Source: Bacteroidota bacterium (GTDB lineage: Bacteria > Bacteroidota > Ignavibacteria > UBA10030). Taken from it: a stretch of DNA of 48,336 nucleotides. Every line of letters begins with the position of its first letter. The first letter of the stretch is position 1. A program made the position numbers and the translations under genes. The DNA is taken from positions 1-48,336 of the forward strand of contig JADGQA010000002.1 in assembly GCA_017882185.1 (NCBI GenBank), given 5' to 3'. Below the pieces are notes generated by a model. It did not search any database, had not been told where the DNA came from, and worked only from the letters and a program-made list of their open reading frames with translations. Below, one piece after another: positions 3,853-37,333 of the stretch.

Positions 3853-4062
3853 TCAGGCTGCGGGAGTCTTCGGTTCACCCTCTTCAGTCATCTTTGCTTT
3901 GATTTCCTGAACCTCATTCCGAATCTCCTGCGCTTTCCTTTTCAAGTCTGCCATATGTTTGCGAAGACGAACGCCGGCAGATTTGTTCTTCTTCTGATAA
4001 AACTTGTCAAAATCGACTTTATAAGTCTGGATCAAATCAACAAGCTCCTGAAACCTGTCCAT
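3853..4062 (-). CDS. Histone H1-like nucleoid protein (Hc1 family)
   Basis: The 69-aa basic protein contains KFYQKKNKSAGVRLRKHMADLKRKAQEIRNE, matching the FY-x-KGN-x-AG-x-RLRK pattern of bacterial Hc1/histone H1-like proteins. An AAGGA RBS lies upstream. Confidence 0.8.
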   Translation of the reverse strand: MDRFQELVDLIQTYKVDFDKFYQKKNKSAGVRLRKHMADLKRKAQEIRNEVQEIKAKMTEEGEPKTPAA

Positions 4063-14011: not shown

Positions 14012-16222
14012 CTACTTCGTCGTCATGATGAACACGCCATTCCAATCATCAGGCGGTGGATTGATCTGGTACAGACTGGCACGTTGCGTATAGATTTGTG
14101 CAACATAGCAAGTTTCGTCCAGGGAGAAAGTCTGTTGAAAGTACGCAATTGCCTCTTCCCACTTCCGTTCCTGATACAATTTCAGCCCTTCATGATACAA
14201 TTCGATTGACTGTTTTTGGTTTTCGGTCATCTGCATTCCTGTCTTACCCAACAATTCGTACACCTTCACCGGTTCGGTCTTTCCCTTGACCTGAATCAGG
14301 TCCAGTTCGCGGGTTACCACTTTCCCCTTTACGTGATTAAACGTAAAATCGCTGATCATAATCTGGGATTGGTACTGCTTGTTCGCTCCTTCCAGACGTG
14401 ATGCAAGGTTTACGCTGTCACCAATAACGGTGTAGTCGAACCGATCCTTACCTCCCATATTACCCACGATCACGATGCCCGTGTTGACTCCACAGCGGGC
14501 AGCGAGCTCCGGTTTTCCTTCTTTCTTCCACTTTGGCCGTAATTCTGCAAGTCGTTTTTGCATATCAAGCGCGGCATAGCACGTGCGCAGTGCATGATCT
14601 TTCTGCGGAAGCGGAGCGCCCCAAAAAGCCATGAGTGCATCGCCCTCGTATTTGTCGAGTGTCCCATCGTACTTTAAGACGATTGAGGTCATCTCGTCCA
14701 GGTATTCATTCAGAAGCTCGACAAGGCCTTCAGGGTTTTTATGATAGTGTTCCGAGATAGTCGTAAAACTCGCAATATCAGAGAAGAAGATGGTGAGTTC
14801 GCGGCGGTCGCCTCCAAGTTTGGCTTTCTCTGGTTCGTTGACCAGAATATTCACCACTGCCGGGTTCAGGTAATGACCGAACACCCCCTTGATCATTGCC
14901 TTCTGCTCCCGCTCGGCAAGATACTGGTAAACCGCCGTTCCAAAGTAAGCAAGGACGACAGCAAGGCTGGGATTCACAATATTCATCAGAACGCTCGAAC
15001 TGGCAAAAAGCACGATAGCAAGTTCGAAGATGCCGAAGACAAGAAGGAGGACGATAATGAAGGAGACGATTTCCAAAATCCAGACGTGGCGCAGCTTGAT
15101 TTGTCTGAACCTCCAGAGTCCGAAGAATGTTACAAGCGAAAGTGAGAGGATCAGCACCATTTCCAGGCTAGGTTCGAGGATAGTGATAAAATTTCCATCG
15201 AGGACATTCTGGATTGCCGTGGCATGGATCTCCACACCATTCATGGTGTAGTTTTTCTTGCCCCCCTCGATAGTCGGAATCGGCACATTATGATAATCCC
15301 GTTCTTCCGGCATGATCGAACCGACAAGGACGATTTTGTTCTTTATCAGACTTTTCGTCCCTTCATCAAACGCATTGATGTCGGTCTCATAGTCGAGTTC
15401 GTCTTTGGTTTTGAACGTTGAGTCGTCGATAACCTGCGCGAAGGGAATATATCGAAAGCCGTTTTCGTACTTGGAAGGACCATAATAATTAAGCATGAAA
15501 CTCGTGGCGTCGTACTTTGGAATAACGCGATTCGCCAGAACAAAGTTCTGCTCGGTATCTTTCACACGAGTGAGCGGCGGAAATTTGAGATACCGGTCGA
15601 GGCTGGCAAATGCCAGCGTCGGAATAAGATTGTCACCGGCTGTCATCATCGGCATGTATCTCCTGACAACCTGATCCCGATCCCAAATCACGTTCGTGAG
15701 TCCGATCTGTCTCCTGTTGGTCTCAAAAAAGACATTCCCGTAGTTTTCTTTCAGGGAGCGAACATCGACATACTCATTCGATCCGCCGGTCTGTACCGTT
15801 GTCGCAAGTACAACATTGTTGTATTTCTGGAGCACTTCCGCTAACACGGTGTCCCCTTCGCGTGGACTGTCGAACGTGATGTCGAGTCCGATTACCGCGG
15901 CGCCCGCCGAATTGAGGTTTTCGATGAGATGTGCATAATAGCTTCGCGGAAATGGAAATGCCCTCGGCATTGCCTTCAGATCGTCGTCAGAAATACTCAC
16001 GATCACAACATTGCCATTGTCCTTCAAAGCGCGCGGCTGCGACTGCTGATATCGGTTCTGATAGCGCAGGTCAACGGTGAGCTGATCAATGCTCTGAAGA
16101 ATTCCGATCTTGTCGAAGAAAATCCCCTGTGTGAGAACGATGACGATTGCACCGATTCCCAATCCGATTGCAATCCGAATCAGGGTCGGTAATGTTTTTT
16201 TCTTGAAGTCGTATGAGGCCAT
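14012..16222 (-). CDS. CHASE2-domain class III adenylate cyclase with a C-terminal TPR-like tail
   Basis: After an N-terminal TM, the CHASE2 pattern VVIVSISDDDLKAMPRAFPFPRSYYAHLIENL...GLDITFD is present. Three TM helices follow. The cyclase core has FFSDIASFT, KYEGDALMAFWGAP and DYTVIGDSVNLASRLE. The K/T substrate pair suggests ATP specificity. Confidence 0.9.
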   Translation of the reverse strand: MASYDFKKKTLPTLIRIAIGLGIGAIVIVLTQGIFFDKIGILQSIDQLTVDLRYQNRYQQSQPRALKDNGNVVIVSISDDDLKAMPRAFPFPRSYYAHLIENLNSAGAAVIGLDITFDSPREGDTVLAEVLQKYNNVVLATTVQTGGSNEYVDVRSLKENYGNVFFETNRRQIGLTNVIWDRDQVVRRYMPMMTAGDNLIPTLAFASLDRYLKFPPLTRVKDTEQNFVLANRVIPKYDATSFMLNYYGPSKYENGFRYIPFAQVIDDSTFKTKDELDYETDINAFDEGTKSLIKNKIVLVGSIMPEERDYHNVPIPTIEGGKKNYTMNGVEIHATAIQNVLDGNFITILEPSLEMVLILSLSLVTFFGLWRFRQIKLRHVWILEIVSFIIVLLLVFGIFELAIVLFASSSVLMNIVNPSLAVVLAYFGTAVYQYLAEREQKAMIKGVFGHYLNPAVVNILVNEPEKAKLGGDRRELTIFFSDIASFTTISEHYHKNPEGLVELLNEYLDEMTSIVLKYDGTLDKYEGDALMAFWGAPLPQKDHALRTCYAALDMQKRLAELRPKWKKEGKPELAARCGVNTGIVIVGNMGGKDRFDYTVIGDSVNLASRLEGANKQYQSQIMISDFTFNHVKGKVVTRELDLIQVKGKTEPVKVYELLGKTGMQMTENQKQSIELYHEGLKLYQERKWEEAIAYFQQTFSLDETCYVAQIYTQRASLYQINPPPDDWNGVFIMTTK

Positions 16223-16234
16223 GCGAGTTCCGAG

Positions 16235-18715
16235 TTAGAACAAGAACCGGTATATCAGACTGAAGATTTTGTCGTCGGCGGCTCCGCTGTTCTGATAGTA
16301 GTTCAATTGAAGGGCAAAATTATGCCTGTCCACGGTGTAGTCTGCGGAAGCTGTATAGGTCACCCTGTTGAATACTCCAAATTGCGGGCTAACGGATGCC
16401 GCGAGCCGCAAATTATCTCCCAACATGTTATACCTGGCACCAACCGTAACCACTGTGTAGTTGAACTTGGTTGTTGTGAGGGTGCTGTCTGGCCCCAGCC
16501 TTCCCGAGAGTGTGGTATCTGGCTTGAAGAGTTGCTGATCGCTGCTGTTCCCGCTGTAAAGCACGCTAAGAGTTGTTTGAAGCGGGATTTTGAATTGACT
16601 ATTCCAAGCCATTTGCAGAAAGCTATTCGATTGGTTTCGCCTGTAGATTGTGTTGTCCTTCTTGTCTGCTATGCTGATGCTTGCAGTCAAGGTATGCCGG
16701 ATTCCAGCGGTGAAATCATAATTGACGCCAAAATACAAGCGGTTCGTTGCTTCATCTGCAACTTTTGAGGCCGAATCCGACGTCGAAACGTTCTGAAAGA
16801 TTAGTTGATCATTGTTTCTCCCGTATACACCATAGCCAATCTGGAACGTGGGGACATTGGCGGCAAGATTCATCGTAAGCGAGCTATTGAGGTTTGAGTA
16901 ACTTGTCGTCCCAGCTTTTGTAAACGCCGTATTGTCGCTCTTGCCTTCGTACGAAAGGCTCAGGAATACTCTGTTGCTGAACAAGCGAAGGTAATCAGAT
17001 ACTTGAAATCCTTGAATATCGGTTTGCAGGAATGGATTCCCGAAGGACTGGTACGCCGCCCCTCTCCGGAAGAACTGAGTACGCAAGAAATTACTGAAAT
17101 AGTTCAACGAAAGAGTGGCTTCCGTCGAAACTCCAGGGAGTGTTGTCAGTCTGCTGTTCTGATCATAAATCGGATTGGTTGGAAAAATACTCTGATTGAC
17201 TGTAATAAACTTTTCCACGGTGCCAATTGCAACAGGGAGGTCTTTTCTCAGATTGATTCCTCCGTTTATTGTCAGCGAATCGAGCTGCGCGTCGGTGAAA
17301 TTGCCCCCGGAAATATTGGTATTGGACAGAGAAACGGAAGTCTGTGATTCCAATTTGATCCGTTGATCGTCGAATGCCAGCGTCAGGTCCGTGCCCATGA
17401 CGACGTTTTCTTGCGGTTGTATGGCATATCGCACGGAATTCGTGTCATCAATAGCGTGCATGTATGTGAAGCCAAGTTGAAAATTTTCTCCGCTTCCAAA
17501 ACTCGGTCTTATAGCAAGAATTTTTCGTGTGAAGGTTCCAGGCGAGTAGAAGTTGTAGTAAAGGCTGTCTGTGCGAGTACGGACCGAGCTAAGAGGTCTT
17601 GCGGTTACCGATGAAGAATCCAAAAGTGTATCCCGGGGCGCAAGGATTCCCTCAATTCTTCTCACAGTCTGTCCATACGTCACATCGAGATTGAAATACC
17701 CAAGAGCAAGGTTGCCGGTAATTCCGCGGACGCGCGTTCCACTGACAATAAGGCTGGGATAACTTGGAAATGCGTCTCCGTACTGGAGTCGAAGAAAATC
17801 TGTCTGGCCGTAAAGAAGATACCTGTTCTGAGGTTGAAGAGTACTCTTTTCCTGGTTGTCCAGGTGCAGGCTTCCGCCAAACCCGATGGACCTGTACGTA
17901 TTGTCGATTCTGGCATCTCCGCGAAGATACGTTGTTGCACCTGAACTCAACGCTTCGTTGCGATATTCCACGCTTGCATTGCCCGCCGATTGCAGGCGCG
18001 CCTTCACCTCAGCAAGTGCGGCAGCACTGGAGAGGTTGAAGCTTTCTTCGATAGCGTGATACGGTTTGCCCGTTGTATCTCTCAATTCGATACGGATGAA
18101 ATGAGAACCGAGATTGAGGGGCATCCCAAAATTCTGCGGTGAGAAAATCAAGACATCGTCAGACCAGACTGCCTGCGATGTTACGTTCACACCATCCATG
18201 ATCAGCGTCGTTGCTTTCCGGTCGATTGCATCGGAAGCATAAAACAGTGAGACGGCGATGACAAGATCTTCCGCCGCCACTGTTTCTCCGGGCTCTGGAG
18301 AAAGGAATCGTACTTCGGCATCCTTTGGGTTGGCGGGCTTCACGGTGAACTGAAGCGGATTTGCATCAGGATTTGCGACCGGATAAGTCTCAGGTCCACT
18401 CTCGAGTTCGAGTTCAAAGTAATATTCGACATATGGGGGCAGAATTGCATCGGCCGGAATTGTCACTGTCGCAGTGTTGCCCGAGAGCAACATTTCCGTA
18501 CCTTTGAAGGAAGTCTCACCGAACGAACGATACCGCAATGTTACTTTTCGCACTTGTGCATTTTGCTGCAATTCCACGCTAATCGGTTGAGACTTGCCTG
18601 CGACAGCGCTCGGGGCGTTCACCCTCAGGACTTTCGGAGCACTTTGCTGTGCCGCAAGAAACGGACTGCTCACAAGTATCAATAAAAGAACACTCGAGAT
18701 GCGGGTGCATTTCAT
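16235..18715 (-). CDS. Large outer-membrane protein: signal peptide, Ig-like N-terminal region and a predicted beta-barrel
   Basis: The signal peptide is MKCTRISSVLLLILVSSPFLAAQQ. Long Y/G/S/T/N-rich alternating stretches follow. The C-terminus ends in YRFLF, an aromatic terminal residue typical of OMPs. I recognised no family. Confidence 0.6.
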   Translation of the reverse strand: MKCTRISSVLLLILVSSPFLAAQQSAPKVLRVNAPSAVAGKSQPISVELQQNAQVRKVTLRYRSFGETSFKGTEMLLSGNTATVTIPADAILPPYVEYYFELELESGPETYPVANPDANPLQFTVKPANPKDAEVRFLSPEPGETVAAEDLVIAVSLFYASDAIDRKATTLIMDGVNVTSQAVWSDDVLIFSPQNFGMPLNLGSHFIRIELRDTTGKPYHAIEESFNLSSAAALAEVKARLQSAGNASVEYRNEALSSGATTYLRGDARIDNTYRSIGFGGSLHLDNQEKSTLQPQNRYLLYGQTDFLRLQYGDAFPSYPSLIVSGTRVRGITGNLALGYFNLDVTYGQTVRRIEGILAPRDTLLDSSSVTARPLSSVRTRTDSLYYNFYSPGTFTRKILAIRPSFGSGENFQLGFTYMHAIDDTNSVRYAIQPQENVVMGTDLTLAFDDQRIKLESQTSVSLSNTNISGGNFTDAQLDSLTINGGINLRKDLPVAIGTVEKFITVNQSIFPTNPIYDQNSRLTTLPGVSTEATLSLNYFSNFLRTQFFRRGAAYQSFGNPFLQTDIQGFQVSDYLRLFSNRVFLSLSYEGKSDNTAFTKAGTTSYSNLNSSLTMNLAANVPTFQIGYGVYGRNNDQLIFQNVSTSDSASKVADEATNRLYFGVNYDFTAGIRHTLTASISIADKKDNTIYRRNQSNSFLQMAWNSQFKIPLQTTLSVLYSGNSSDQQLFKPDTTLSGRLGPDSTLTTTKFNYTVVTVGARYNMLGDNLRLAASVSPQFGVFNRVTYTASADYTVDRHNFALQLNYYQNSGAADDKIFSLIYRFLF

Positions 18716-18768
18716 AGCATTACCTGTTTAATAGACTAGTATTGCGTGGATTTAGAATTGAAAGAAAA

Positions 18769-18799
18769 CGGCGGCAAGAATTGGTTTTTCTTGCCGCCG
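18769..18799 (-). terminator. Intrinsic terminator between the FecR-like gene and the large OMP gene
   Basis: A 12-bp perfect stem, CGGCGGCAAGAA / TTCTTGCCGCCG, has a 7-nt loop. On the minus strand it is followed by TTTTCTTT. Confidence 0.7.
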
Positions 18800-18856
18800 C
18801 AATGTAGGAAAAGTACAAAAGGGAATCAAGGATCAGTCCCGGCAACGATTGCCGGA

Positions 18857-19597
18857 CTATTCTTCCCACTCAAAGATGATTGTTTTCTTGTGGCCGTCTC
18901 TATCTTCACCCGGGATTCGGATCTGTTTCTTGTGGGTGCCGCCTTGTCCCTGGTTTCCACCCTGACTGCCTAGACCCGTGTTTCCAATGTTTCCTTGCTG
19001 CTGTTCGTCATGGGTAGAATTATGAACATTGACTTGTCCATTACCATAAGTAATTCCAATCTGTCCGGTCCCGACATCCTGGGAAAGATGCGAGAGGAGA
19101 TTTGTGAGTGTGGCCAAGCCTTCGTTGATGATCAATTGATCAACACTGTCTGCACCGCAAGAATATCCGCCCTGCGTCCCGCGGATCGACGCAACTGAGA
19201 TTGGCGACGAAAACCGGAATTGTTCTGTTGCTTGTTTCTTCACGTCGAATGCAACATTTCCTTTCGCCATATAAATACTTCGATCAAGGACTTGCCTTCC
19301 CTGAACCTGAGCCTTGACCTGCACAATGGAATTTTGTCTCACGATGATTTTTGTCTCATCAGGGAATTTAATCATCGCAAAAGAACCCTGTTCTGTTCTC
19401 AACTCATACCCTGAGTGAAGTTGATCGGCAAGTAATGCTTTCTGCCAACCCGTTGTCGGTCCCTTCTTGTCTACACTCTTGACGACCTTGATGACCGTAG
19501 CCGGAAAATCTCCCTTGTCCTGAGGGATTCTCCATGCTGGACTGAGCATAAGAACGCTCGCCACAATAAGAATTAAGAATACACTTTTGCGTTTCAT
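18857..19597 (-). CDS. FecR-domain secreted/periplasmic protein
   Basis: A signal peptide is present. The FecR-like pattern is LHSGYELRTEQGSFAMIKFPDETKIIVRQNSIVQV. The C-terminal tail is G/Q-rich. A TAGGAGA RBS lies upstream. Confidence 0.65.
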   Translation of the reverse strand: MKRKSVFLILIVASVLMLSPAWRIPQDKGDFPATVIKVVKSVDKKGPTTGWQKALLADQLHSGYELRTEQGSFAMIKFPDETKIIVRQNSIVQVKAQVQGRQVLDRSIYMAKGNVAFDVKKQATEQFRFSSPISVASIRGTQGGYSCGADSVDQLIINEGLATLTNLLSHLSQDVGTGQIGITYGNGQVNVHNSTHDEQQQGNIGNTGLGSQGGNQGQGGTHKKQIRIPGEDRDGHKKTIIFEWEE

Positions 19598-19633: not shown

Positions 19634-20740
19634 TTATTCTACGCGAACGGTGACTTGAATATTTTGGGCCATGAGCTTGGCGACCAATGCTTTCAAATCA
19701 TCCAGAGTCACCGGCTTTCCATCAAGAGTAATCGTGCCCGTCAGGGTCCATCCAATACTCTGGAGAGTAGAAAATGTGCCCGCAGCCGAGCTTCCGAAGC
19801 TGCCCATCATGTCTGAAACATCTTGACCTGCGCGATTATCGAGTCGAATTCGGAAAAGTCGGATTTCGCTACGTCGCTGTATGGTTTGCCGATTCGTTGT
19901 TACGGAGGCTTCCACAAACCACACATAGGACTTGTTCTGTTCCAAACGACGTGACGCGTTTGCAGGATAGGTAAACGATTGTGGCCCATTAACTTCCTGC
20001 TTCAGGAACGGAATACCGTTGACTGCTTCTTCAAGGCTTTGGTAGATAGGCAGCTTCTCATAGACATACAGAGTCACAACAGGATTGGGAGATGTCCAGT
20101 TGAATGTCGGTAAGGTGGTTGAAACAACGGCTCCAGCTTGCGGGTCGATTAGGTTGACCTGAACTTCATCCGGCGAGGCATTGCGGACAGTAACGACTTT
20201 CTGAATCCTTCCGAGAATCGTACCTTTCCCTCCCGTTGGTGTAACGGAGTATGCCTCCAACTGGAGTATGTACTGTCCCACGGGGGCTGTTGGAAACTGC
20301 TTTGCATAGTCTTTGATCCGGTCGCGCAGACCTTGGTTTTCCCTGTAGGGGTCACCTTTGATTTTGATGTCGGAAACACTTCCAGCTGCGAGGTCCGACG
20401 CCGTGATCGTTCGAACCGCGCCAATATTGAACGGCTCGGTCTCTGCGAATACCAATTCCTCGGGGCTTGAATGCCCTTTGAGCTGCACCAATGCTGTTAC
20501 GTCCAGCATGATCTGTCCAGGCACATCCGGGCGGATGGTACCACTGAAGTTCGGAATGTTCTTGGCAAGCTTGTTGGATGTTACATCGATGAAATCCGCA
20601 AGATAGATGACATCGTATTCCAACGACGGAAGATCGAAATCGACGTGGGTGATCGTCTGTGCTTGTGATGTTGATAATCCAATCGTCACGATTGCTGTAA
20701 GGAGCCACACGAACTTGTTTATCGCGATGTTCCGTTTCAT
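19634..20740 (-). CDS. Secreted hypothetical protein (368 aa from the preferred start)
   Basis: An ATG at 20740 is preceded by GGGAGGATTAAG, a strong SD. The signal peptide is MKRNIAINKFVWLLTAIVTIGLSTSQAQ. I recognised no family. The ORF-track start at 20818 is rejected. Confidence 0.7.
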   Translation of the reverse strand: MKRNIAINKFVWLLTAIVTIGLSTSQAQTITHVDFDLPSLEYDVIYLADFIDVTSNKLAKNIPNFSGTIRPDVPGQIMLDVTALVQLKGHSSPEELVFAETEPFNIGAVRTITASDLAAGSVSDIKIKGDPYRENQGLRDRIKDYAKQFPTAPVGQYILQLEAYSVTPTGGKGTILGRIQKVVTVRNASPDEVQVNLIDPQAGAVVSTTLPTFNWTSPNPVVTLYVYEKLPIYQSLEEAVNGIPFLKQEVNGPQSFTYPANASRRLEQNKSYVWFVEASVTTNRQTIQRRSEIRLFRIRLDNRAGQDVSDMMGSFGSSAAGTFSTLQSIGWTLTGTITLDGKPVTLDDLKALVAKLMAQNIQVTVRVE

Positions 20741-20831
20741 CTTAATCCTCCCTGGTGATAATTTGTTCTTTGCTTCAAAGTACAATTGGCGGGCGACCCG
20801 ATTCGTGACCACTCTCACAAGTCGTTATTTT

Positions 20832-27793: not shown

Positions 27794-29236
27794 TTATTCC
27801 GGCTCTGCGTGAATTGTAATACGGCGTACTTGCTTGAATTGTCGATACAACTCGGTTTCCAATTCAGAAATGATTTGATGCACTTCTTCCAGAGTTCTCA
27901 TTTTCTCCATCCTGCACGTTAACGTAACGTTGTATTTAAGTCCCTCCTGTAACAACACACAGTCGATCAATCTGAGTACGCGACTGTCCTTCCCGACAAG
28001 TTTTTGGATCTGACTCCTCAGTCTATGCTCTGAGGCTGTCACATCGCTCAGTTCGCGCTCACTCGGCAGGTACTCCTCCATATGGATAGTGACCTTGCCG
28101 ACTGTACGGATCTCGCGTTGAATTTGTCCTTCGATTTCGGAAGCCATATCGTGGGCATCCTGAAATGTCTTGCCTTTCTGGTATTCCACATCAAAATCGA
28201 TGAAGTATTTCTCGTCAATCAGATGGACTTCAAGATTGTGCGGTGTACGAAGGCCAAGGTTTTGAACGATCATTCGTATTTTGTCGATAATTGATTCATC
28301 GGGACTTTCTACTGGCTCGGCATGAACAACGACGTCAATATTGGAATGGGCAGAAAGGACTGCCTTCTCGATGTTGTCCATAATGCGATGTGCTCGTTCA
28401 AAGGGAAGCGTCCTTCGGATCGCCACGGTTGCATCGACAAAGACCTTGGCTCCCGAGGTTCGCAACCGGACGCTTCGCACTTCCTCAACTCCCTCTACAT
28501 CTTTGATGGCCGTCGCGACTGTCTCTTTGAGTCCAGTGGGAACACGATCCATCAGCGCATCAATGGTGCGACGGCCAAGCCGATAACTGACAAAGAGAAC
28601 CAGAAGCGCCACAACAATTGCCCCAAGTGCGTCCGCGAGCGGGTATCCCATTGCGACGAACACTAAACCTATAATGACTGTCAAGGACGACCAGATATCC
28701 GACGAAAAATGAAGAGCGTCTGCTTCTAAGGCCTGGCTATGATGTTTCTTCGCAACCCTGCTGAGCGCGCGCGAGCGGCTCAGGTCAATGATGATGGAGA
28801 CTCCCATGACCAAAAAACTCCAAATCGTTGCTTCCACGTGCGATGTGTGGGTCACCAAACGCTTGATTGCCTCGACGATAATCCATCCACATGTAATCAC
28901 CAAGAGAATGGTTTCAACGAATGCAGATATATTTTCCACCTTGCCGTGGCCGTACTGGTGGTCCTGGTCCGCCGGTCGGTCGGCAATCACGACAGCAATG
29001 AGCGTGATGATGGCGGCGAGGAGATCCAGACCGGAATGTGCCGCTTCCGAAAGTATTCCCAGGCTGTTCGTCTTGATTCCTACAGCGAGCTTGAACCCAG
29101 TCAAAAAGACTGCGGCCGCGACGGAGCTGAGAGCAATGTATATTTTCTCGTTGGTCTTCACACTAATGCAATGCGGGCTTTCCTGTCCACAATATACGTA
29201 CGGTTCTTCTCCCCTACAATCGGAGGAGTCAAACAT
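27794..29236 (-). CDS. Cation diffusion facilitator (CDF) transporter with three tandem cytoplasmic CTD-like repeats
   Basis: TM2 has HSGLD and TM5 has HFSSD, the site-A ligands. Three repeats follow, each ending in an H-A/M-E motif: VVVHAEP, VTIHMEE and ITIHAEPE. Confidence 0.9.
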   Translation of the reverse strand: MFDSSDCRGEEPYVYCGQESPHCISVKTNEKIYIALSSVAAAVFLTGFKLAVGIKTNSLGILSEAAHSGLDLLAAIITLIAVVIADRPADQDHQYGHGKVENISAFVETILLVITCGWIIVEAIKRLVTHTSHVEATIWSFLVMGVSIIIDLSRSRALSRVAKKHHSQALEADALHFSSDIWSSLTVIIGLVFVAMGYPLADALGAIVVALLVLFVSYRLGRRTIDALMDRVPTGLKETVATAIKDVEGVEEVRSVRLRTSGAKVFVDATVAIRRTLPFERAHRIMDNIEKAVLSAHSNIDVVVHAEPVESPDESIIDKIRMIVQNLGLRTPHNLEVHLIDEKYFIDFDVEYQKGKTFQDAHDMASEIEGQIQREIRTVGKVTIHMEEYLPSERELSDVTASEHRLRSQIQKLVGKDSRVLRLIDCVLLQEGLKYNVTLTCRMEKMRTLEEVHQIISELETELYRQFKQVRRITIHAEPE

Positions 29237-29341
29237 TCCTCAAAATACCTCCGTGCCCGGTTGAATTGCCATTGGAGATTATCTATATTGACCGCAGGGT
29301 TCACGAACGCTGCATTTGAAATCAACAATTCGACTCAGCCT

Positions 29342-30043
29342 ATGCGCTTTGCCATCATTTCAGATATTCATTCCAACCTAGAGGCACTTACAAAGGCATT
29401 TGAATTGATCGACCAAGAATCCGTTCACGAGATTGTCTGCCTTGGTGATGTCGTTGGATATGGGGCGAATCCAAATGAGTGTGTCAACCTTATACGTAGT
29501 CGCTGTCGGATTGTGTTACGCGGCAATCACGATGCCGCAGCTGTGAATCCCCTCAATGCGGATTCGTTTACGAAGAATGCGAGGATTGCCGCCGACTGGA
29601 CGCGTCAGCAGTTGTCAGCTGAAAGCAAACAATTCCTTGAGGGTTTGCCATATACGTTCAGCCGCGACGGGATTCTCTTCGTTCATTCCTCACCATACCA
29701 GCCCGAATCATGGTACTATGTTCTATCCGAGGAAGACCTTGAGGTAGCATTTCAGAATTTCTCAGAACAGATTTGCTTCATCGGACATTCACACTTCCCC
29801 GGCATCTTTTCGGAAGACGGACCGGCGAAAGCTGTCAACCGCGGATCGAGGTTTCTTGTGAACGTGGGCAGCATAGGACAACCACGGGATGGGAATTCGA
29901 AGCTCAGCTTTGGAATATTCGATACGGAGAACTGGAACTACAGGAATATCCGGAGTGAGTATCCTCTACAGATTGCTGCAGAAAAGATACTGCGCGCGGG
30001 ACTTCCCAGGGCTCTTTCCGATCGACTTGCACTGGGAATGTAG
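29342..30043 (+). CDS. Metallophosphoesterase (calcineurin-like; YfcE/PrpE-type)
   Basis: The motifs are MRFAIISDIHSN, CLGDVVGYG, GNHD and a later GHSH. The in-frame upstream part of the 434-aa ORF is antisense to the CDF gene and is rejected. Confidence 0.85.
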   Translation: MRFAIISDIHSNLEALTKAFELIDQESVHEIVCLGDVVGYGANPNECVNLIRSRCRIVLRGNHDAAAVNPLNADSFTKNARIAADWTRQQLSAESKQFLEGLPYTFSRDGILFVHSSPYQPESWYYVLSEEDLEVAFQNFSEQICFIGHSHFPGIFSEDGPAKAVNRGSRFLVNVGSIGQPRDGNSKLSFGIFDTENWNYRNIRSEYPLQIAAEKILRAGLPRALSDRLALGM

Positions 30044-30059: not shown

Positions 30060-30884
30060 CTAATTGCGATTGAGCACCGCGAGCATCTCGTCCTTTTTCA
30101 TCGAAGAGACTGCTGCGCAAAGTGTTTGATCCGCTATCCAGAGAACCACGTTACAGTTCGGGTGGTGCGGGTCGGTATACCAGCCGGTTTTCTCCAGCGC
30201 GACTCTCGCAGCGGGTGGAATGATGAGTGTTGACCCGTCAAAAACGTTTGTCTTTCTCACCTGGTATACGTACATAACATCGTCACTCATAGTGTAGACA
30301 ATCTGTGCCAGCTTGATGCCGTTGAACTCGGAGGCAAGCGCCCCATACGATCTGCAGCAATCCATCGGTTGCACGATGGCGAAATTCATACCGCTCTGAT
30401 CCAAGTATTGATGAATATCTTCTGCCTTGTTGGCCACTATCGTTGGCTTTAGTTCGCCGTTCTGGAATCTGGCAAAATTCCGAAGCGACTGAAAAATCAC
30501 GTCGTTTGAGGCTGTGTGAACATCGCTTTCTTCAACAGCAGTTGGTGAATTGAAGAACACCAACGCAACGACGATTGCAACCGAAGCCGCAAGAGCCGGT
30601 AGCAGTCGGTCCATTGTCAATATGTCCTGAATCCAATCGAAGAGCGACGATACTGATTGCGAAGACTTGTTGAGTGCTGAGACAATGGTGTGAACAATTT
30701 CGGGGGGGGTGCCTACATGAGAGCAGCGGCTTTTCACGACCGCTTTGGTGATCATTTCGAGCTCATATGATTTTCGACAGCCCCGACACCTTCCCAAGTG
30801 TTCGAGGAGACTGTTGCGAGTGCTCAACGGAACCGATCCGTCAATCGCTTCGCCAAAAAGATCGTTTGCCTCGGTGCATTTCAT
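30060..30884 (-). CDS. Anti-sigma factor (zf-HC2 type) with one TM and an extracytoplasmic domain
   Basis: The N-terminal H-x3-C-x2-C motif is LEHLGRCRGCRKSY. The single TM is LLPALAASVAIVVALVFF. The gene lies directly downstream of an ECF sigma gene. Confidence 0.7.
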   Translation of the reverse strand: MKCTEANDLFGEAIDGSVPLSTRNSLLEHLGRCRGCRKSYELEMITKAVVKSRCSHVGTPPEIVHTIVSALNKSSQSVSSLFDWIQDILTMDRLLPALAASVAIVVALVFFNSPTAVEESDVHTASNDVIFQSLRNFARFQNGELKPTIVANKAEDIHQYLDQSGMNFAIVQPMDCCRSYGALASEFNGIKLAQIVYTMSDDVMYVYQVRKTNVFDGSTLIIPPAARVALEKTGWYTDPHHPNCNVVLWIADQTLCAAVSSMKKDEMLAVLNRN

Positions 30885-30937
30885 TCAATCACCTCGTCGC
30901 GACGATATCCCATTCCCTGCATTTTCACACTCCCTCT

Positions 30938-31561
30938 CTAATCGCTGGCAATCAACCCTTGTTTCTTTGCGTATTCAAACAGTTTAGCTTGAAGCAATTT
31001 TCTTCCTCTATGGAGTCGCGACCGCACGGTTCCGATCGGGCATTCCAGAAATTCTGCGATTTCCTCATACGTGAGTCCTTCAATGTCGCAGAGTATTACA
31101 ACAGTCCGGAATTCCTCCGGCAGACTTTGCAGTGCAGCTGTGACTTCATCGCCAAGTAGTCCACCAAAGAATTTTTCCTGCAAATCGTTTGTATCGGTGG
31201 ATGAACTTCGAATAGAGTCATAGAAGTTTTCGACGTCATCATAATCAACCTTGCTTGGCTCTCTTGTTTCCTTCCGGTACCGATTGATGTACGAGTTCTT
31301 CATGATCCGGAAGAGCCACGCACGAATGTTGGTACCCTTTTCGTACTTGTTCCAGAAGCGATACGCTTTCAGATAAGTTTCCTGAAGCAAATCGCGCGCG
31401 TCGTCTACATTTCCGGTCGTGCGGAGGGCGAAATTGTACAACAGATCCATATGAGGAAGGGCCTCAGCCTCAAACTCTTTGTGCCGCTCCCGCGTCGAAC
31501 CTGAAATAACAGATGGAGGAACTCTGGTCATGGTCACCCTACTTTGGTTCCCATCAAACAA
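30938..31561 (-). CDS. ECF-family RNA polymerase sigma-70 factor
   Basis: Region 2 is LLQETYLKAYRFW. Region 4 is EFRTVVILCDIEGLTYEEIAEFLECPIGTVRSRLHRGR. The ORF-track start at 31561 is a TTG; the ATG at 31531 (MTRVPPS) is an equally plausible start. Confidence 0.9.
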   Translation of the reverse strand: MFDGNQSRVTMTRVPPSVISGSTRERHKEFEAEALPHMDLLYNFALRTTGNVDDARDLLQETYLKAYRFWNKYEKGTNIRAWLFRIMKNSYINRYRKETREPSKVDYDDVENFYDSIRSSSTDTNDLQEKFFGGLLGDEVTAALQSLPEEFRTVVILCDIEGLTYEEIAEFLECPIGTVRSRLHRGRKLLQAKLFEYAKKQGLIASD

Positions 31562-31593
31562 CGAGCTGAGAACCTCTCAGGCAACCCATATTC

Positions 31594-31621
31594 GTAACAC
31601 GAGCAGTCTGAGACAAGTTCC
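31594..31621 (-). promoter_or_regulatory. Candidate ECF-type autoregulated promoter (GGAACTT ... CGTGTT)
   Basis: The minus strand reads GGAACTT-13nt-CGTGTTA, starting about 30 nt upstream of the sigma-factor start. It resembles the GGAAC-N16-CGT class of ECF promoters. Confidence 0.3.
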
Positions 31622-31745
31622 GCTCGGTCAGAATTGGGGCGTTGTTGAATGGGACACACGCTTTTCAAGATAGCTTTTCTGAATTCAACGTACAAAAATT
31701 AGGCAATGATTACAATCCAACTTGCGATTCCCGACCGAATCAATC

Positions 31746-32933
31746 CTATTTCAACAAAAGTCGCAGATCATTCCAGGGAACCTGCTTGTCCAACTGGATA
31801 TCTGACAAGTCAAGTGAGATTCCCTTCCCTTCGCGTTCTTCGAACGCACCGTAAGGACTCAGATCTCCAATATCAACCACCTTTGCCATTAGACGTTTTC
31901 TATCGGGTTCTTGATTCATTTCCTCGATGTTAATGGCTACGTCGACACGGACTGCCGGAATTCCAGCGGCTCCTTTGAATTCGACACCGCGCACAATGAT
32001 ATCGTAGAGATTCTTCGAATTGAATGGAAGTGATTCATAGTCTTCGGTCTTCTTTGTCTCGTACTCTCTCGTTGCAATTGAATGGAGAACCGTCAACAGC
32101 CCGATGACATTGAGTTTGCGAATGTACATTTTGTCACGATCATTCGGCCAGCCGCCGGATTCAACAAGAACTGTGCTTGTTCCCCACATTTGCACACTGT
32201 CACCAAAGGCCCTACGATCGAATGTGTCGTCATATTTTGCGACATGACCGGGCACAATTTGATTCAAAGCCCCGGCGAGGACCGCTGCGACTTTCTTCGC
32301 CTTCAGCCGCACTTCATTGTCTGTACGCAAAGGATCCATTGCCGGAGCCAGAAGTGCAATTGCCGCCACTTCCTTCGTTGAACCAACTGTCAGGCGCGGC
32401 TCTTGATCATGAAGGTTGAAGCCAAATTGAGGTCGGTACTTATGCTGGACGGCCTTCAGGATTTGCGCTTCAGGTGTTCGTAACGTTGAGGCGTCTCGGT
32501 TCATATCGACAAGTTGCGCGGTCCGACGCATGAATCGTTCGGCCCCGTCAGGATTAAGCATGGGGAGCATCAGCAACGAAAGACTGGCCTGTATGGTTTT
32601 GGTGACCACATGTTCCTTGTGCAGTGCGAAGAAATTGAGTATATCGAGCAGTGCCATGGTGGCGGTGGGCTCATCACCGTGCATTTGGGACCAGAGAAGC
32701 ACACTCGTCGGGCCTTCGCCACACGTGTAGAGAGAAATGGTCCGCCCTTCCGCAGATCGGCCAAGATCGGTAGCCCGGACGATGTTCGATCTTATCATGG
32801 GCTCCAACCATCGGAGCATCTCCGATTGGGTGAAGCGGCGGGATGTGATTTCCGAACGCCTGTACTTCTCGTAAGAGTCCAGGAGATCCTGTACGAGTTT
32901 CGATCGTGACAAACTTGATTGGTCTTTGTCCAT
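31746..32933 (-). CDS. M14-family zinc carboxypeptidase-like protein
   Basis: HGDE in WSQMHGDEPTAT is the HxxE zinc motif. A second His lies in the context FNLHDQEP. Length is 395 aa. Confidence 0.75.
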   Translation of the reverse strand: MDKDQSSLSRSKLVQDLLDSYEKYRRSEITSRRFTQSEMLRWLEPMIRSNIVRATDLGRSAEGRTISLYTCGEGPTSVLLWSQMHGDEPTATMALLDILNFFALHKEHVVTKTIQASLSLLMLPMLNPDGAERFMRRTAQLVDMNRDASTLRTPEAQILKAVQHKYRPQFGFNLHDQEPRLTVGSTKEVAAIALLAPAMDPLRTDNEVRLKAKKVAAVLAGALNQIVPGHVAKYDDTFDRRAFGDSVQMWGTSTVLVESGGWPNDRDKMYIRKLNVIGLLTVLHSIATREYETKKTEDYESLPFNSKNLYDIIVRGVEFKGAAGIPAVRVDVAINIEEMNQEPDRKRLMAKVVDIGDLSPYGAFEEREGKGISLDLSDIQLDKQVPWNDLRLLLK

Positions 32934-33632
32934 AAAGGATTTTTAGAGATGAAATCCTTCTTCCCTGAGGCAACTGTAAAGGAGAAAAATTCAATTTTTA
33001 GAAAATGGTGGAACAAGATACCAATATCTTGCGAGGATTTCACCTGATTTGATTGATTGCGACGACAAGTCTTGTCGATCTCATCCCATGCATGGTGACT
33101 AATTATTCATAGACACAAAAAGTAATACCGTTCGAAGGCAACAAGCGAATTGCTTGTGGATCGAGCGTATCGACCCCCAGTCGTTGGATTTGTACAACAG
33201 CTTTGTCGCTGAAATCGAGGTACGGTCGGTTTCTTGTTTGCATCCTGTCACCTCATCATTCAGTTTCGGGTGCACCGCCGCGCCATACGCGAGCAATGCC
33301 AGATAGGGATTTCACCCGAGGTTTGATGGAGAGCTTCTCCGTTGATGGTCCGATTGTCGGAATTTGATTACAGGCCAAAGAAATTTCTTTTGATGGTTAA
33401 CAGGTTAATCGAAAAACTCTGAAAGGAATAGGATCTGGTCGCGGCATTCAGATATGCTGTCGCATAGAATGACCGGTTTTCCGAACAAGAATAGTCTGAA
33501 TTCGATAGCGACGTGTGATTCTCGTCAGCGCTTGGAGATTATGAGTTATTACCTGCAAAGGGACGTTAGTTTTTTGGGAGACCAGAGCCTTTTCTACTGG
33601 AGCACACAAGAAAGGCCGACGGGAGCACGATG

Positions 33633-33661
33633 TTGACATTCATACGGTCATTCGATATATT
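33633..33661 (+). promoter_or_regulatory. Strong sigma70-type promoter for the BMC shell operon (TTGACA-17nt-TATATT)
   Basis: The -35 hexamer is consensus and the -10 is near-consensus, with optimal spacing, ~70 nt upstream of the first BMC-H ATG. The predicted leader contains a small hairpin, GCCCGT-actac-ACGGGC. Confidence 0.5.
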
Positions 33662-33730
33662 AACGGCAGCCTGCCCGTACTACACGGGCGAGAAAGTGCC
33701 TCTTCTCAACATTTCCAAAGGAGAATCTCA

Positions 33731-34027
33731 ATGTCTGATATTTCGCTGGACGCACTTGGCATGGTCGAAACGAAAGGACTCGTCGGCTCCATCGAAGCCG
33801 CTGATGCAATGGTCAAGGCGGCCAAAGTCACGCTCATCGGCAAGGAACAGATCGGCGGTGGTTATGTGACGGTCATGGTCCGCGGAGATGTTGGAGCCGT
33901 GAAGGCTGCAACAGATGCCGGAGCAGCCGCAGCTCAGCGCGTCGGCGAGTTGGTTTCCGTGCACGTTATTCCGCGTCCTCACAGCGATGTGGAGATGATT
34001 CTTCCCAAACGTCCTGCACAAAAGTAA
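33731..34027 (+). CDS. Bacterial microcompartment shell protein, BMC-H (PduA/EutM/CcmK-like hexamer)
   Basis: The canonical BMC domain reads [79 protein letters not shown]. An AAGGAG RBS lies upstream. Confidence 0.95.
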
Positions 34028-34039
34028 AGGATCCATACC

Positions 34040-34074
34040 AAGACCTGATCGGAATAAAAATCCGACCAGGTCTT
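34040..34074 (+). terminator. Intercistronic hairpin / partial terminator between the two BMC-H genes
   Basis: The stem is AAGACCTG-A-TCGG [aataaaaat] CCGA-C-CAGGTCTT, 12 bp with one mismatch. It is followed by the T/C-rich TCCGTCTTC. Confidence 0.45.
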
Positions 34075-34090
34075 TCCGTCTTCATTGCCT

Positions 34091-34633
34091 ATGATTGATT
34101 ACGCCCTTGGCCTGATCGAAACTAGAGGACTCGTTGCTGCTATCGAAGCTGCCGATGCAATGGTGAAGACTGCCAACGTCGTACTCGTGGGAAAGGAAGT
34201 GACGAACCCGGCACTGATTACCATCAAAGTTGTGGGAGATACAGCAGCAGTTCGCTCAGCGGTCGAAGCCGGTGCTGCCGCCGCCCAACGGGTAGGTGAA
34301 CTTGTCTCCAAGCACGTGATCCCACGGCCAGCCGAAGGAATGGAAGAATTGCTGTTTACCAAAGGTTCCCGGACGCAACCCGACGTAGAAGACGAATTGC
34401 ATGAGGGAAGGGTTGATGAAGAGGAGGAGCCAACGCCAGAAGTTCCCTATTCCATGCCGGATGGTTTGACAGAAGAACAGAAGGAATACTTCACATCCCT
34501 TGAAGCGATGACAGTTCATGAATTGCGGCGACATGCGCGTAGTATTGAGGGATTGAAGATTTTTGGACGCGAGATTTCACGGGCCAACAAAGCCCAATTG
34601 CTTGAGGAATTGATGAAGGTTAAAGGAAGCTGA
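34091..34633 (+). CDS. BMC-H shell protein paralog with divergent pore loop and ~90-aa C-terminal extension (acidic linker plus Rho-N/HeH-like helix pair)
   Basis: The BMC domain reads [46 protein letters not shown]...VIPRPAEG. It is followed by DVEDELHEGRVDEEEEPTPE and then LEAMTVHELRRHARSIEGLKIFGREISRANKAQLLEELMKV. I prefer the ATG at 34091 over the TTG at 34085. Confidence 0.9.
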   Translation: MIDYALGLIETRGLVAAIEAADAMVKTANVVLVGKEVTNPALITIKVVGDTAAVRSAVEAGAAAAQRVGELVSKHVIPRPAEGMEELLFTKGSRTQPDVEDELHEGRVDEEEEPTPEVPYSMPDGLTEEQKEYFTSLEAMTVHELRRHARSIEGLKIFGREISRANKAQLLEELMKVKGS

Positions 34634-34656
34634 ACACTGCCCAGGAATGTACACGG

Positions 34657-34692
34657 AAAAACCCCGAGGTCTATTTCGACCCCGGGGTTTTT
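34657..34692. terminator. Rho-independent terminator shared by the BMC operon and the convergent Omp85-like gene
   Basis: The sequence is AAAAACCCCG-A-GGTC [tatttc] GACC-C-CGGGGTTTTT. The stem is GC-rich and is flanked by an A5 run and a T5 run. Confidence 0.75.
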
Positions 34693-34711
34693 CATTTCTC
34701 TCCCATTCCGA

Positions 34712-36406
34712 TCAAAATGGACGATTGAATCTCAGCACAAACCTGGCTGGGGCCTTCACATCTGTCCTCCATGCAATCCCAATTCTGAAGGATCCGCTTC
34801 GGTTGCTGAATCCCACTCCAATATCGTTTTTGAACTCACCCCATGTTATTTTCTCAAACCCTTCCGTCGGTCTTGCATCCTGCGCAACTGTTCTCACCAA
34901 ACCTGCATCGCTAAAGAACAGAAAGTTGACATGACGGAACAACCAACTGGGCCAGAAATCCAAATCATCCAGAGTACTCCCATTCATGATATATTCCGCG
35001 TTGAACAGAATCAATCTGTTGCCGGACTCAGTCTTAAACGGGAAGCCATTGAGCGTCCCAAGTCCGCCAAGGTCATACGCCTTCTGGATCGGTAATATTC
35101 CGTCGGATGTTCCTGCACGCAAACGGAAGTTTAGATTGTCGTACGATGAAATCGGCTGGAAACGTCGTATGTCAAAAATATACTGATCGAAGTCAAAATC
35201 ACTCCCAAGGGATCTCGGTCCATATTCAAACGCTCCAAAGATACTCCAGCCTTCGGGACCACGGGCAGACTTGCTTTCCGTACTGATACCGGCAGATGTA
35301 AGTATGGTTCGCATTTTCCCTTCGTTAATCTTTGGATTCGGACGGAACAACTTATCGCCGCCGAACAAAGCCCATTCTGTATTATTCCCGATCGATGCAT
35401 ATTCGTCCGCGAGATAGGAAGCCTTCAGTTCGGTTTTGAGATAATCATTCTGCGAATAATAGGCAATGTGCGTCGAATAGCCATTGCGCTCGAAATAATC
35501 ACGAAAATCTTCGTGAATCAAGAGTGCGGCAGCAGTGTTCTCGTGCACGCCAATGAGCCATTGATCCTTGGAATCCGTCAGACTATATCCCTCTGCACCG
35601 ATTTCAAACAACTCATTGCCATCGATGATACCCAGCGGGAATTGTCTTGCGATGCCGAGATTTCCGCGCCAGGTGTGCGAACGGATACCCCAACCGATCG
35701 AGCCATAGGAATTGAACTCCCTTCGTCCATCCCAGTTATATTTTTTCTCCGTCCCAAGGCCAAGGAATAATCCTTCAACCCTGTTGTACCGGAAAATGAA
35801 ATTGTCCAAATTTGCATTTTCCCCTATCCAGGACGCACTGAACGAGTTCCCCGGGTGTGAGAATCGATGTCGCTCTTCTCTATAGCCGACCGTTTGGGAG
35901 CTGGTTTTGTCGGTGTAACCATCGATGATTCCCCCGTTTTCTTTCACAATGGTACCGTTGATTACGCGTGCGTTCCCGGTAATTCTTCCTCCATCCTTTA
36001 CATAGAGTGACCCCCCAACAACCAGGACATCTCCATCGATCTTTCCGTATACCGTGAGGTCTCCCCCTTTGACCACCACATTAGAATTGATCGTGGAGTT
36101 CTCTTTCACGGTGAAGTCGCCTTCGTATGTCTCTGTCCTGTGATCGTTCTCCAGATCAAGATCGACATCATGCTTCTTCGACCTGCCCGGAAGTGTATCC
36201 GGGTCGAATGGATCGGACTCATAGTCTCGGGAGAATTCTCCTGTAATCTCGGAAACAAACCGTTCAATCTTTTTTCCAATGCGGTCACCAACGTCGTCAT
36301 TGTGTTCGTCATCCCTTGATCTGTTAGTGTCAGACTGGGCGCTTGACACTTGCAGAGCTAGAAATGTCATTGTAAGTACCGCACAAAAGCTTCTTGTCAT
36401 TTTCAT
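34712..36406 (-). CDS. Omp85-family (Bac_surface_Ag-type) outer-membrane barrel fused to an N-terminal bactofilin-like beta-helix segment
   Basis: The signal peptide is MKMTRSFCAVLTMTFLALQVSSAQS, with an AGGTGA RBS upstream. The repeat segment is VVVKGGDLTVYGKIDGDVLVVGGSLYVKDGGRITGNARVINGTIV. The barrel motif is YDLGGLGTLNGFPF...LFNAEY. The C-terminus is FVLRFNRPF. Confidence 0.6.
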   Translation of the reverse strand: MKMTRSFCAVLTMTFLALQVSSAQSDTNRSRDDEHNDDVGDRIGKKIERFVSEITGEFSRDYESDPFDPDTLPGRSKKHDVDLDLENDHRTETYEGDFTVKENSTINSNVVVKGGDLTVYGKIDGDVLVVGGSLYVKDGGRITGNARVINGTIVKENGGIIDGYTDKTSSQTVGYREERHRFSHPGNSFSASWIGENANLDNFIFRYNRVEGLFLGLGTEKKYNWDGRREFNSYGSIGWGIRSHTWRGNLGIARQFPLGIIDGNELFEIGAEGYSLTDSKDQWLIGVHENTAAALLIHEDFRDYFERNGYSTHIAYYSQNDYLKTELKASYLADEYASIGNNTEWALFGGDKLFRPNPKINEGKMRTILTSAGISTESKSARGPEGWSIFGAFEYGPRSLGSDFDFDQYIFDIRRFQPISSYDNLNFRLRAGTSDGILPIQKAYDLGGLGTLNGFPFKTESGNRLILFNAEYIMNGSTLDDLDFWPSWLFRHVNFLFFSDAGLVRTVAQDARPTEGFEKITWGEFKNDIGVGFSNRSGSFRIGIAWRTDVKAPARFVLRFNRPF

Positions 36407-36607
36407 AAAGTCACCTACTAGTCTGTTGATGTGTTCCAACAGACGTTACGATTCCGTTTTGTAAAAGTTGCAAAGATTTCCAATCCAAAGAACAGTTCTC
36501 AGGTGACTAAAAAAGCATACAATCATGCGACTTCACAATCAAATGAGAAAAGTGTTATATTTGAGCAGCAGAAACAAGATTCTGTTCATCTTGAAGCCGG
36601 GACACGC

Positions 36608-37333
36608 ATGCAACTCGCCATAAATATAGATCACATCGCCACCATCCGCAACGCCCGCGGAGGAATAGAGCCGAATCCAGTCGAAGCTGCCCATATCTGT
36701 GAACACGCCGGTGCGGTTGGCATCGTTTGTCATTTGCGGGAAGATCGAAGGCACATTCGCGACAACGATGTCCGACAGCTGCGAAAGACCATCACAACCA
36801 AGCTCGACCTGGAGATGGCGACAACGGATGAAATCATAGGCATTGCGCTCGACGTGATTCCGGACCTCGTAACACTAGTACCGGAAAAGCGACAAGAATT
36901 GACAACAGAAGGAGGTCTCGATGTTGTTTCACAGAAGAAGAGACTGGCAGACGTGATCAAGTCTTTCCACAACAAAAAGATCGCTGTAAGCTTGTTTGTT
37001 GACCCGGTGCAGTCACAAATTGAGACTTCGAAGGAGATCGGGGCTGATATGGTTGAGCTCCACACTGGTGAGTACGCGAATGCCAGGTCAGATCGTGAGG
37101 TAAAGGATCAACTTGGCAGGATCCAGAGCATGGCGACACTTGGAAGATCGCTCGGTCTCACTGTAAACGGCGGACACGGGTTGGATTACAGAAACGTTTC
37201 ACCGATTGCTGCCATCAAAGAAATTCACGAAGTCAGCATCGGCCACGCTGTGATTATACGCGCTCTCTTCGTCGGATTAGAAAATGCGGTTCAAGAGATG
37301 CTGAAGTTGGTAGTGTCTGGAAGAAGTATCTAA
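36608..37333 (+). CDS. pdxJ: Pyridoxine 5'-phosphate synthase
   Basis: The N-terminus is LAINIDHIATIRNARGG. The motifs HLREDRRHI and EIHTGxYA-like (ELHTGEYA) are present. The start is set at the ATG at 36608; the longer ORF-track start overlaps the divergent gene region. Confidence 0.95.
   Translation: MQLAINIDHIATIRNARGGIEPNPVEAAHICEHAGAVGIVCHLREDRRHIRDNDVRQLRKTITTKLDLEMATTDEIIGIALDVIPDLVTLVPEKRQELTTEGGLDVVSQKKRLADVIKSFHNKKIAVSLFVDPVQSQIETSKEIGADMVELHTGEYANARSDREVKDQLGRIQSMATLGRSLGLTVNGGHGLDYRNVSPIAAIKEIHEVSIGHAVIIRALFVGLENAVQEMLKLVVSGRSI

Follow-up and report, generated by a model that had tools for sequence, protein, structure and literature searches.

Two adjacent microcompartment shell genes in an Ignavibacteriaceae genome fit the catalogued FRAG1 type

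The gene pair

The stretch of DNA considered here is positions 1 to 48,336 of contig JADGQA010000002.1, from the Bacteroidota bacterium assembly GCA_017882185.1 (class Ignavibacteria); "the window" below always refers to this whole 48-kb piece of the genome, which has a G+C content of 48.5%. On its forward strand lie two adjacent genes, gene 1 (33731..34027) and gene 2 (34091..34633), that encode shell proteins of the bacterial microcompartment (BMC) hexamer type, BMC-H. An earlier reading of the letters alone, which we call the original prediction, had described the pair as a stand-alone two-gene shell operon of PF00936-type proteins. The family call is borne out by profile searches, as both open reading frames (ORFs) match PF00936 over the full length of the model and above the gathering cut-off of 24.5 bits, gene 1 with 102.4 bits (E 1.3e-29) and the BMC-H domain of gene 2 with 93.3 bits (E 9.1e-27). 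A profile of gene 2 homologs also matches dozens of solved BMC-H structures.

Gene 1 encodes a canonical hexamer protein of 98 residues with a GGG pore loop, a K-A-A-K edge motif and a PRPH motif, 75% identical to PduA and 74% identical to the BMC-H of Haliangium ochraceum (HO). Gene 2 encodes 180 residues that fall into three parts: a BMC-H domain (residues 1-88, 34091..34354), an acidic and mostly disordered linker (residues 89-126, 34355..34468), and a C-terminal helical domain resembling the Rho_N/SAP type (residues 127-180 and the stop codon, 34469..34633). We place the start of gene 2 at the ATG at 34091 because its homologs begin with MIDYALG. The two proteins are 62% identical over the BMC domain, and the BMC domain of gene 2 is 52% identical to that of EutK.

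Residues through which hexamers would meet at their edges appear to be present in both proteins, judged by sequence only against K26, N29 and R79 of PduA and the PRPH region. Gene 1 has K29 and K32, as in the HO BMC-H, and the arginine of PRPH; gene 2 retains K26, N29 and R79, and in an alignment of 25 homologs K26 and R79 are invariant. The pore of gene 2 is of another kind. Its loop reads V-T-N-P-A (34199-34213, residues 37-41), with T-[DN]-P-A in most relatives, and is unlike the G-S-G of PduA and the G-G-G of gene 1 but close to the L-D-P-G of EutK, so that the gene 2 pore may be altered or occluded.

The transcription unit

The operon is preceded by a sigma-70-type promoter, TTGACA-N17-TATATT, at 33633..33661 on the forward strand (11/12 match). 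A lone site of this kind is not above chance, since shuffles of the region yield 1.9 +/- 1.2 of them. Among orthologous loci, TTGAC[AT]-N17-TATATT stands 46-118 nt before the start of gene 1 in all 76 unique upstream regions, the flanks of which differ widely in sequence and G+C, and 84 of its 89 occurrences in 1.3 Mb of related loci precede this BMC-H gene. The promoter of the original prediction is thus upheld by its conservation.

Two direct copies of GGAGCA lie just upstream of the -35 element (33599-33604 and 33622-33627, forward strand) and are probably a regulator-binding motif. In 61 of the 76 unique orthologous promoter regions there is a GGAGCA or the complementary TGCTCC; 15 sequences have it at -11 from the -35 element and 18 have it within the spacer, the two preferred positions. 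The motif is not enriched elsewhere in the window. We treat it as a probable, still candidate, regulator site. When metagenome contigs were scanned for GGAGCA-N5-TTGACA-N17-TATATT, none of the 117 matches lay before a gene for a pentamer protein (BMC-P); about 20 were the pair's own promoter and one recurrent match was the ybaB-recR promoter, and no further members of a regulon were found in that scan.

The original prediction had given both genes an AAGGAG ribosome-binding site. This is right for gene 1, whose Shine-Dalgarno site is read at 33718..33723 (forward strand), and wrong for gene 2, which has none in the window sequence. The difference extends to the whole family: a Shine-Dalgarno core precedes gene 1 in 66 of 66 unique upstream regions, whereas it precedes gene 2 in 5 of 64. 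The 63-nt spacer between the genes carries a stem-loop at 34040..34074 (forward strand), and the 71-nt stretch around it (34025-34095) folds with -21.2 kcal/mol (z -3.9). Spacers of relatives form hairpins of unrelated sequence in 46 of 57 unique cases (median z -3.5), 11 of them with a T-rich tail. The stem-loop is probably an attenuator or a 3' stabilizer of the gene 1 transcript. Together, the spacer hairpins and the near-absence of a gene 2 Shine-Dalgarno site suggest that low expression of gene 2 is enforced. These counts lead us to infer that the cell makes more gene 1 protein than gene 2 protein, which would fit a major and a minor facet protein.

At its far end the unit is closed by a bidirectional intrinsic terminator (34656..34693, both strands) with an A-run and a T-run on either side of its stem, shared, as predicted, with the convergent gene for an outer-membrane protein (34712-36439, reverse strand). 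The hairpin reaches -27.5 kcal/mol on the forward and -35 kcal/mol on the reverse strand (z -3.9 and -4.6). The DNA upstream was correctly described as poor in ORFs, since the 797 nt at 32934-33730 hold only short ones. In the next species this upstream spacer is conserved only over the proximal ~110-130 nt plus one patch, the conserved 68-nt stretch at 32990-33056 beside the start of the neighboring M14 peptidase gene, which also matches the related locus L017.

The C-terminal domain of gene 2

In an AlphaFold2 (AF2) model of full-length gene 2, the BMC domain is confident, the C-terminal domain is helical, and confidence drops over most of the linker that joins them. Local confidence (predicted local distance difference test, pLDDT) is low over residues 71-120, with means of 41-50 per 10-residue block and two segments below 50, a range that takes in the end of the BMC domain and the larger part of the linker. 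Modeled by itself, the tail folds into four helices with a pLDDT of 91.3. The linker has a net charge of -9 in the window and -5 to -14 in relatives, among which its length and composition vary (in locus L085 it is rich in proline and alanine instead), and the last ~42 residues of the tail carry a net charge of +2 to +8.

Rho_N (PF07498) is the sole Pfam family that the tail matches, in 20 of 23 tails at E <= 0.1 and at best with 3.3e-5, all of them under the gathering score (16 bits for the tail in the window, with a cut-off of 24.9). Sequence searches of the PDB with the tail found nothing. In Foldseek, the best matches by template modeling (TM) score and root-mean-square deviation are SAP-domain proteins, 3'hExo (4l8r_B, TM 0.62, 2.0 A over 52 columns) and DEK (TM 0.53), none of them significant (E > 4). 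On the strength of the model and these matches, we liken the domain to a Rho_N/SAP-like helical (HeH) module. No homology to the helix-turn-helix domain that forms the tail of EutK (PDB 3I71) was found, as hhalign gave a probability of 0.8% and 3I71 is absent from the Foldseek matches.

An exhaustive HMMER search of 1.84 billion representative sequences (E <= 1e-3) found the tail domain (consensus MTVHELR..AR..EGL.IYGREISRANK..LIEEL) in 503 protein clusters at 50% identity. Among the 150 best matches the domain is C-terminal in nearly all, and 100 of the 150 have an N-terminal BMC domain; most of the others look like fragments. We therefore take it to be a recurrent appendage of BMC-H that lacks a Pfam family of its own.

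Conservation and neighboring genes

The tail is present in at least 239 species genomes in a search that took one genome per species. The best 80 of these 239 loci were compared, and all 80 come from metagenome-assembled genomes (MAGs) labeled Ignavibacteria or other taxa of the Bacteroidota/Chlorobi group. Full-length homologs of gene 2 number more than 120 (62-93% identity), and those with a taxon name are from Bacteroidota or Ignavibacteriales MAGs. Among species representatives the closest is CAZOIM010000005.1, from an uncultured Ignavibacteriaceae bacterium. The orthologous two-gene unit recurs in all 80 species loci compared, and each of the related loci L001-L096 reads as a BMC-H followed by a BMC-H with the tail, or as one ORF where the contig ends.

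Across the 80 species, gene 1 is 87-100% identical, gene 2 44-90% and the adjoining M14 peptidase 50-76%. Gene 1 is a canonical, almost invariant hexamer, and the genes of the pair are clearly functional. The isolated position among housekeeping genes could speak for a BMC locus that was lost and of which only a functionless, decaying remnant is left, but we can give this idea next to no credence: it is already contradicted by the conservation of gene 1, by that of the promoter, the Shine-Dalgarno site and the C-terminal domain, and by reading frames that are intact in both genes everywhere.

The reverse strand upstream of the pair (30060-32933) encodes an ECF sigma factor, a zf-HC2 anti-sigma factor and an M14 carboxypeptidase-like protein in which no signal peptide is obvious; the M14 gene and the BMC-H pair are divergently transcribed. 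Together with a metallophosphoesterase gene these genes make up a block that accompanies the pair in a single clade (~30 of 60 loci). We therefore rejected the peptidase, the sigma factor and the anti-sigma factor as parts of the system and treat their linkage as synteny. The metallophosphoesterase corresponds to a mechanically called 434-aa ORF at 28739-30043 (forward strand) that overlaps the gene for a CDF transporter (27794-29236, reverse strand); the proteins of relatives have 233 aa, so its true start is probably near 29340.

On the other side, pdxJ (36608-37333, forward strand) lies within 6 kb downstream of the pair in 53 of 80 species loci, a count limited by the fact that about 56 of the 80 extend at least 3.5 kb downstream. 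This linkage spans two clades with different upstream neighbors, and what lies between the pair and pdxJ varies: an outer-membrane protein gene on the opposite strand, a same-strand gene of ~300 aa, or none. PdxJ was considered as a cargo protein and rejected. The apparent N-terminal extension of its ORF is not conserved, the proteins of relatives having 238-242 aa, and hence there is no sign of an encapsulation peptide.

Pentamers and cargo

The original prediction had also stated that the 48 kb hold no pentamer, BMC-T or cargo genes, and our searches agree. A Pfam scan of every ORF of at least 120 aa in the window found no pentamer domain (PF03319), BMC-T, aldehyde dehydrogenase, PduL, glycyl-radical enzyme, RuBisCO or carbonic anhydrase. 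A BMC-P profile run against all six-frame, stop-to-stop ORFs of at least 40 aa in the window gave nothing better than E 0.47, and a control search of the same ORFs with PduA returned exactly the two BMC-H genes. Of the BMC-P seed sequences, the three displayed in a PDB check (HO BMC-P, CcmL and EutN) were exact. Neither a PduS/PduT pair nor a pentamer triplet was seen within the window.

The products of the scanned ORFs in the window are housekeeping or regulatory proteins. Those identified by Pfam include a helicase-like ATPase, an SDR protein, FeoB, Lon, DnaX, a CHASE2 cyclase, RseP, Dxr, a TPR protein, a K+ channel, the CDF transporter, the metallophosphoesterase, the ECF sigma and anti-sigma pair, the M14 peptidase, PdxJ, a GFO oxidoreductase, a Cys/Met PLP enzyme, a NUDIX protein, a two-component system, LemA and an M48 peptidase. 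The window has no tRNAs, and Rfam finds no riboswitch or other RNA family anywhere in it. Farther from the pair, the reverse strand at 14012-19597 encodes a CHASE2-domain adenylate/guanylate cyclase, an 826-aa ORF without a Pfam match and a FecR-domain protein, adjoined by a 394-aa ORF (19634-20818) likewise without a Pfam match. An otherwise gene-poor stretch of 1.2 kb holds a lysine-rich ORF of 69 aa (3853-4062, reverse strand) that has the look of a histone H1/Hc1-like nucleoid protein.

The relatives show the same isolation: in loci L001-L096 the 10 kb around the pair hold neither a further BMC-H nor any BMC-P, and BMC-P is likewise absent from that distance in all 80 species loci. A pair with no pentamer nearby invites the idea that the hexamers never close into a shell and that, with neither pentamers nor enclosed cargo, they assemble into sheets, tubes or a lattice associated with the nucleoid, a scaffold and not a compartment. 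A strictly conserved, near-consensus promoter is compatible with steady, high expression, the tail resembles HeH/SAP modules that bind nucleic acids, and FRAG loci, the fragmented microcompartment loci treated below, have no known cargo or encapsulation peptide. Three points speak against it: the published catalogue of BMC loci reports a BMC-P triplet in genomes of this type, one MAG with the exact pair is listed there with a pentamer, and both proteins retain the edge residues for tiling facets. We consider a hexamer-only assembly unlikely.

Assignment to FRAG1 and proposed mechanism

Sutter et al. (2021; Nat Commun 12:3809, Supplementary Data 2; PMC8217296) catalogued a set of "fragmented" BMC types in which shell genes are spread over up to six places, many of them without identifiable enzymes and none with a match to an encapsulation peptide. 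One of these, FRAG1, comprises 57 shell-protein-only loci, mostly from Ignavibacteria. Its hexamers are one standard BMC-H and one with a long C-terminal extension that holds an ordered domain; its BMC-P triplet (green, grey and orange clades) is encoded elsewhere, a PduS/PduT pair is optional, and an enzyme-bearing main locus is not known at all (PMC8217296). The pair in the window agrees with this description, by which we judged its membership: it consists of a standard and a tailed BMC-H, the tail of which is predicted to be ordered (pLDDT 91.3), and it is shell-only, with no enzymes nearby and an Ignavibacteria or related host, according to the window's Pfam scans, the neighborhoods of relatives and the taxon labels. 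It also agrees with the definition of a satellite locus by Axen et al. (2014; PMC4207490), in that its shell genes are contiguous and belong to PF00936 and not to PF03319.

Indirect support for pentamers at other loci comes from a single MAG. Ignavibacteria bacterium RIFCSPLOWO2_12_FULL_56_21 (L049 among our loci) carries an orthologous, syntenic pair, and the BMC-P tree of the catalogue lists the same MAG with a FRAG1 satellite pentamer, A0A1G0SGI4 (PMC8217296). Two leads from the catalogue were set aside. Its 229-aa FRAG1 BMC-H of clade "teal2c" is a long-branch oddity that is uninformative for gene 2, and "HO", which might be read as a hexamer-only type, stands for Haliangium ochraceum. Among the later papers searched, none mentions FRAG1.

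The arrangement is therefore not new. The original prediction was correct in observing a stand-alone two-gene shell operon, but its claim of unusualness is weakened because the pair, by its sequence features, is an instance of a type catalogued in 2021 and functionally unexplained. Of the two readings it had offered, a satellite of a main locus elsewhere or hexamers used without a shell, something near the first is favored by the FRAG1 description and the pentamer of the L049 MAG, although a canonical main locus is not part of it.

An ordinary satellite would supply extra hexamers to such a canonical, enzyme-bearing locus elsewhere in the genome, for example one of the MIC4 type as in Melioribacter roseus. 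Some Ignavibacteria do have MIC4 main loci with aldehyde dehydrogenase, phosphotransacylase and aldolase, five loci of M. roseus hold seven BMC-P genes between them (PMC4207490), and the window covers only ~48 kb of the genome. However, the catalogue counts 15 MIC4 loci, to be set against a tail found in 239 species genomes, and it places a BMC-H pair of this kind in FRAG1 and not in MIC4. The promoter, moreover, is private to the pair and strictly conserved, and is common to nothing else in 1.3 Mb of related DNA. That the pair serves an enzyme-bearing locus of this sort is, in our judgment, doubtful.

We propose instead that the locus is the BMC-H pair of a FRAG1-type microcompartment in an Ignavibacteriaceae bacterium, which forms closed shells with BMC-P from elsewhere and is tethered by its tails; we hold this reading as a whole to be probable. 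Pentamers are likely to be encoded elsewhere in the genome, and we do not expect there to be a canonical main locus that carries a signature enzyme. Gene 1 would supply the bulk facet hexamer and gene 2, in lower amounts, a minor facet component, and both hexamers would co-assemble with the BMC-P triplet from other loci into closed shells.

The C-termini of BMC-H proteins lie on the concave face, which in solved shells such as that of Haliangium faces the cytosol. Because of this orientation, the tails are predicted to be displayed outside the shell, where each gene 2 hexamer would present six of them to the cytosol on flexible linkers. By analogy with EutK, they may serve to anchor the organelle or to position it, with nucleic acid or the nucleoid as the likeliest support; we favor this role because EutK, another BMC-H with a positively charged C-terminal domain, distributes its compartments. 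In EutK the tail has been proposed to bind nucleotides, the protein controls the spatial distribution of the organelle, and without it Eut compartments remain trapped at the cell poles (PMC12487888).

Several observations weigh against the proposal. BMC-P was found neither in this genome's 48-kb window nor on any contig that carries the pair. Protein searches for pentamers returned only cyanobacterial CcmL with a profile of seven BMC-P sequences and only Myxococcota-type sequences with the HO BMC-P alone, and no Ignavibacteria-labeled sequence was among the BMC-P matches listed in either search. The Rho_N matches of the tail are below the gathering score, its Foldseek matches are not significant, and the class assignment follows the published description. 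Finally, the stoichiometry of gene 1 to gene 2, the binding of nucleic acid and the outward orientation of the tails are inferences only.

A further idea goes beyond the proposal and is, to our minds, improbable as a whole. Here the tail would be a HeH/SAP-like domain not described before, specific to BMCs and found in hundreds of BMC-H lineages, that tethers a steadily expressed compartment of unknown cargo or a hexamer lattice to the nucleoid. The linkage to pdxJ would hint at the chemistry of the compartment, which would handle an intermediate of vitamin B6 synthesis, the unstable amino-ketone.

Microcompartments of the FRAG type occur widely among uncultured phyla and have no assigned enzyme, encapsulation peptide or function. 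The locus adds no new kind to them, but it makes the hexamer pair of FRAG1 more tangible: the promoter is strictly conserved and comes with a candidate regulator motif, the expression of the two hexamers has an apparent built-in asymmetry, and a defined, Rho_N/SAP-like C-terminal domain suggests how the organelle might be positioned.

Comparison with known systems

The closest known counterpart is FRAG1 itself, with which the pair shares an Ignavibacteria host and a shell-only locus with no enzymes nearby, the pentamers of FRAG1 being at other loci. Nothing in the comparison contradicts membership. A point of divergence lies in the description of the tail, which the catalogue calls "analogous to EutK" (PMC8217296) and which here appears Rho_N/SAP-like and unrelated to the EutK tail.

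EutK itself resembles gene 2 in its layout, with a BMC-H domain joined through a linker to a small helical C-terminal domain of positive charge, and in the similar D/N-P pore loops. The two tails are nevertheless not homologous, as the hhalign comparison indicates, and EutK belongs to a 17-gene enzyme operon, whereas gene 2 belongs to a two-gene operon of shell proteins only.

The shell of Haliangium ochraceum is near to the pair through its hexamer, which is 74% identical to gene 1 and has the same GGG pore and K-A-A-K edge. Its shell genes are likewise partly dispersed, its function is likewise unknown, and the BMC-P of its main locus falls into the "viridian3" subclade of the FRAG1 pentamers, the subclade that also holds A0A1G0SGI4 (PMC8217296). 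In contrast to FRAG1, HO has a main locus with an aldehyde dehydrogenase and BMC-T, and a single BMC-H, with none that bears a tail.

Finally, the cyanobacterial CcmK3/CcmK4 satellites offer a parallel in arrangement, as they too are two adjacent BMC-H paralogs that lie away from other shell genes under their own regulation. They differ in that they belong to a known carboxysome, whose main locus and cargo are defined, and in that they lack a C-terminal HeH domain.

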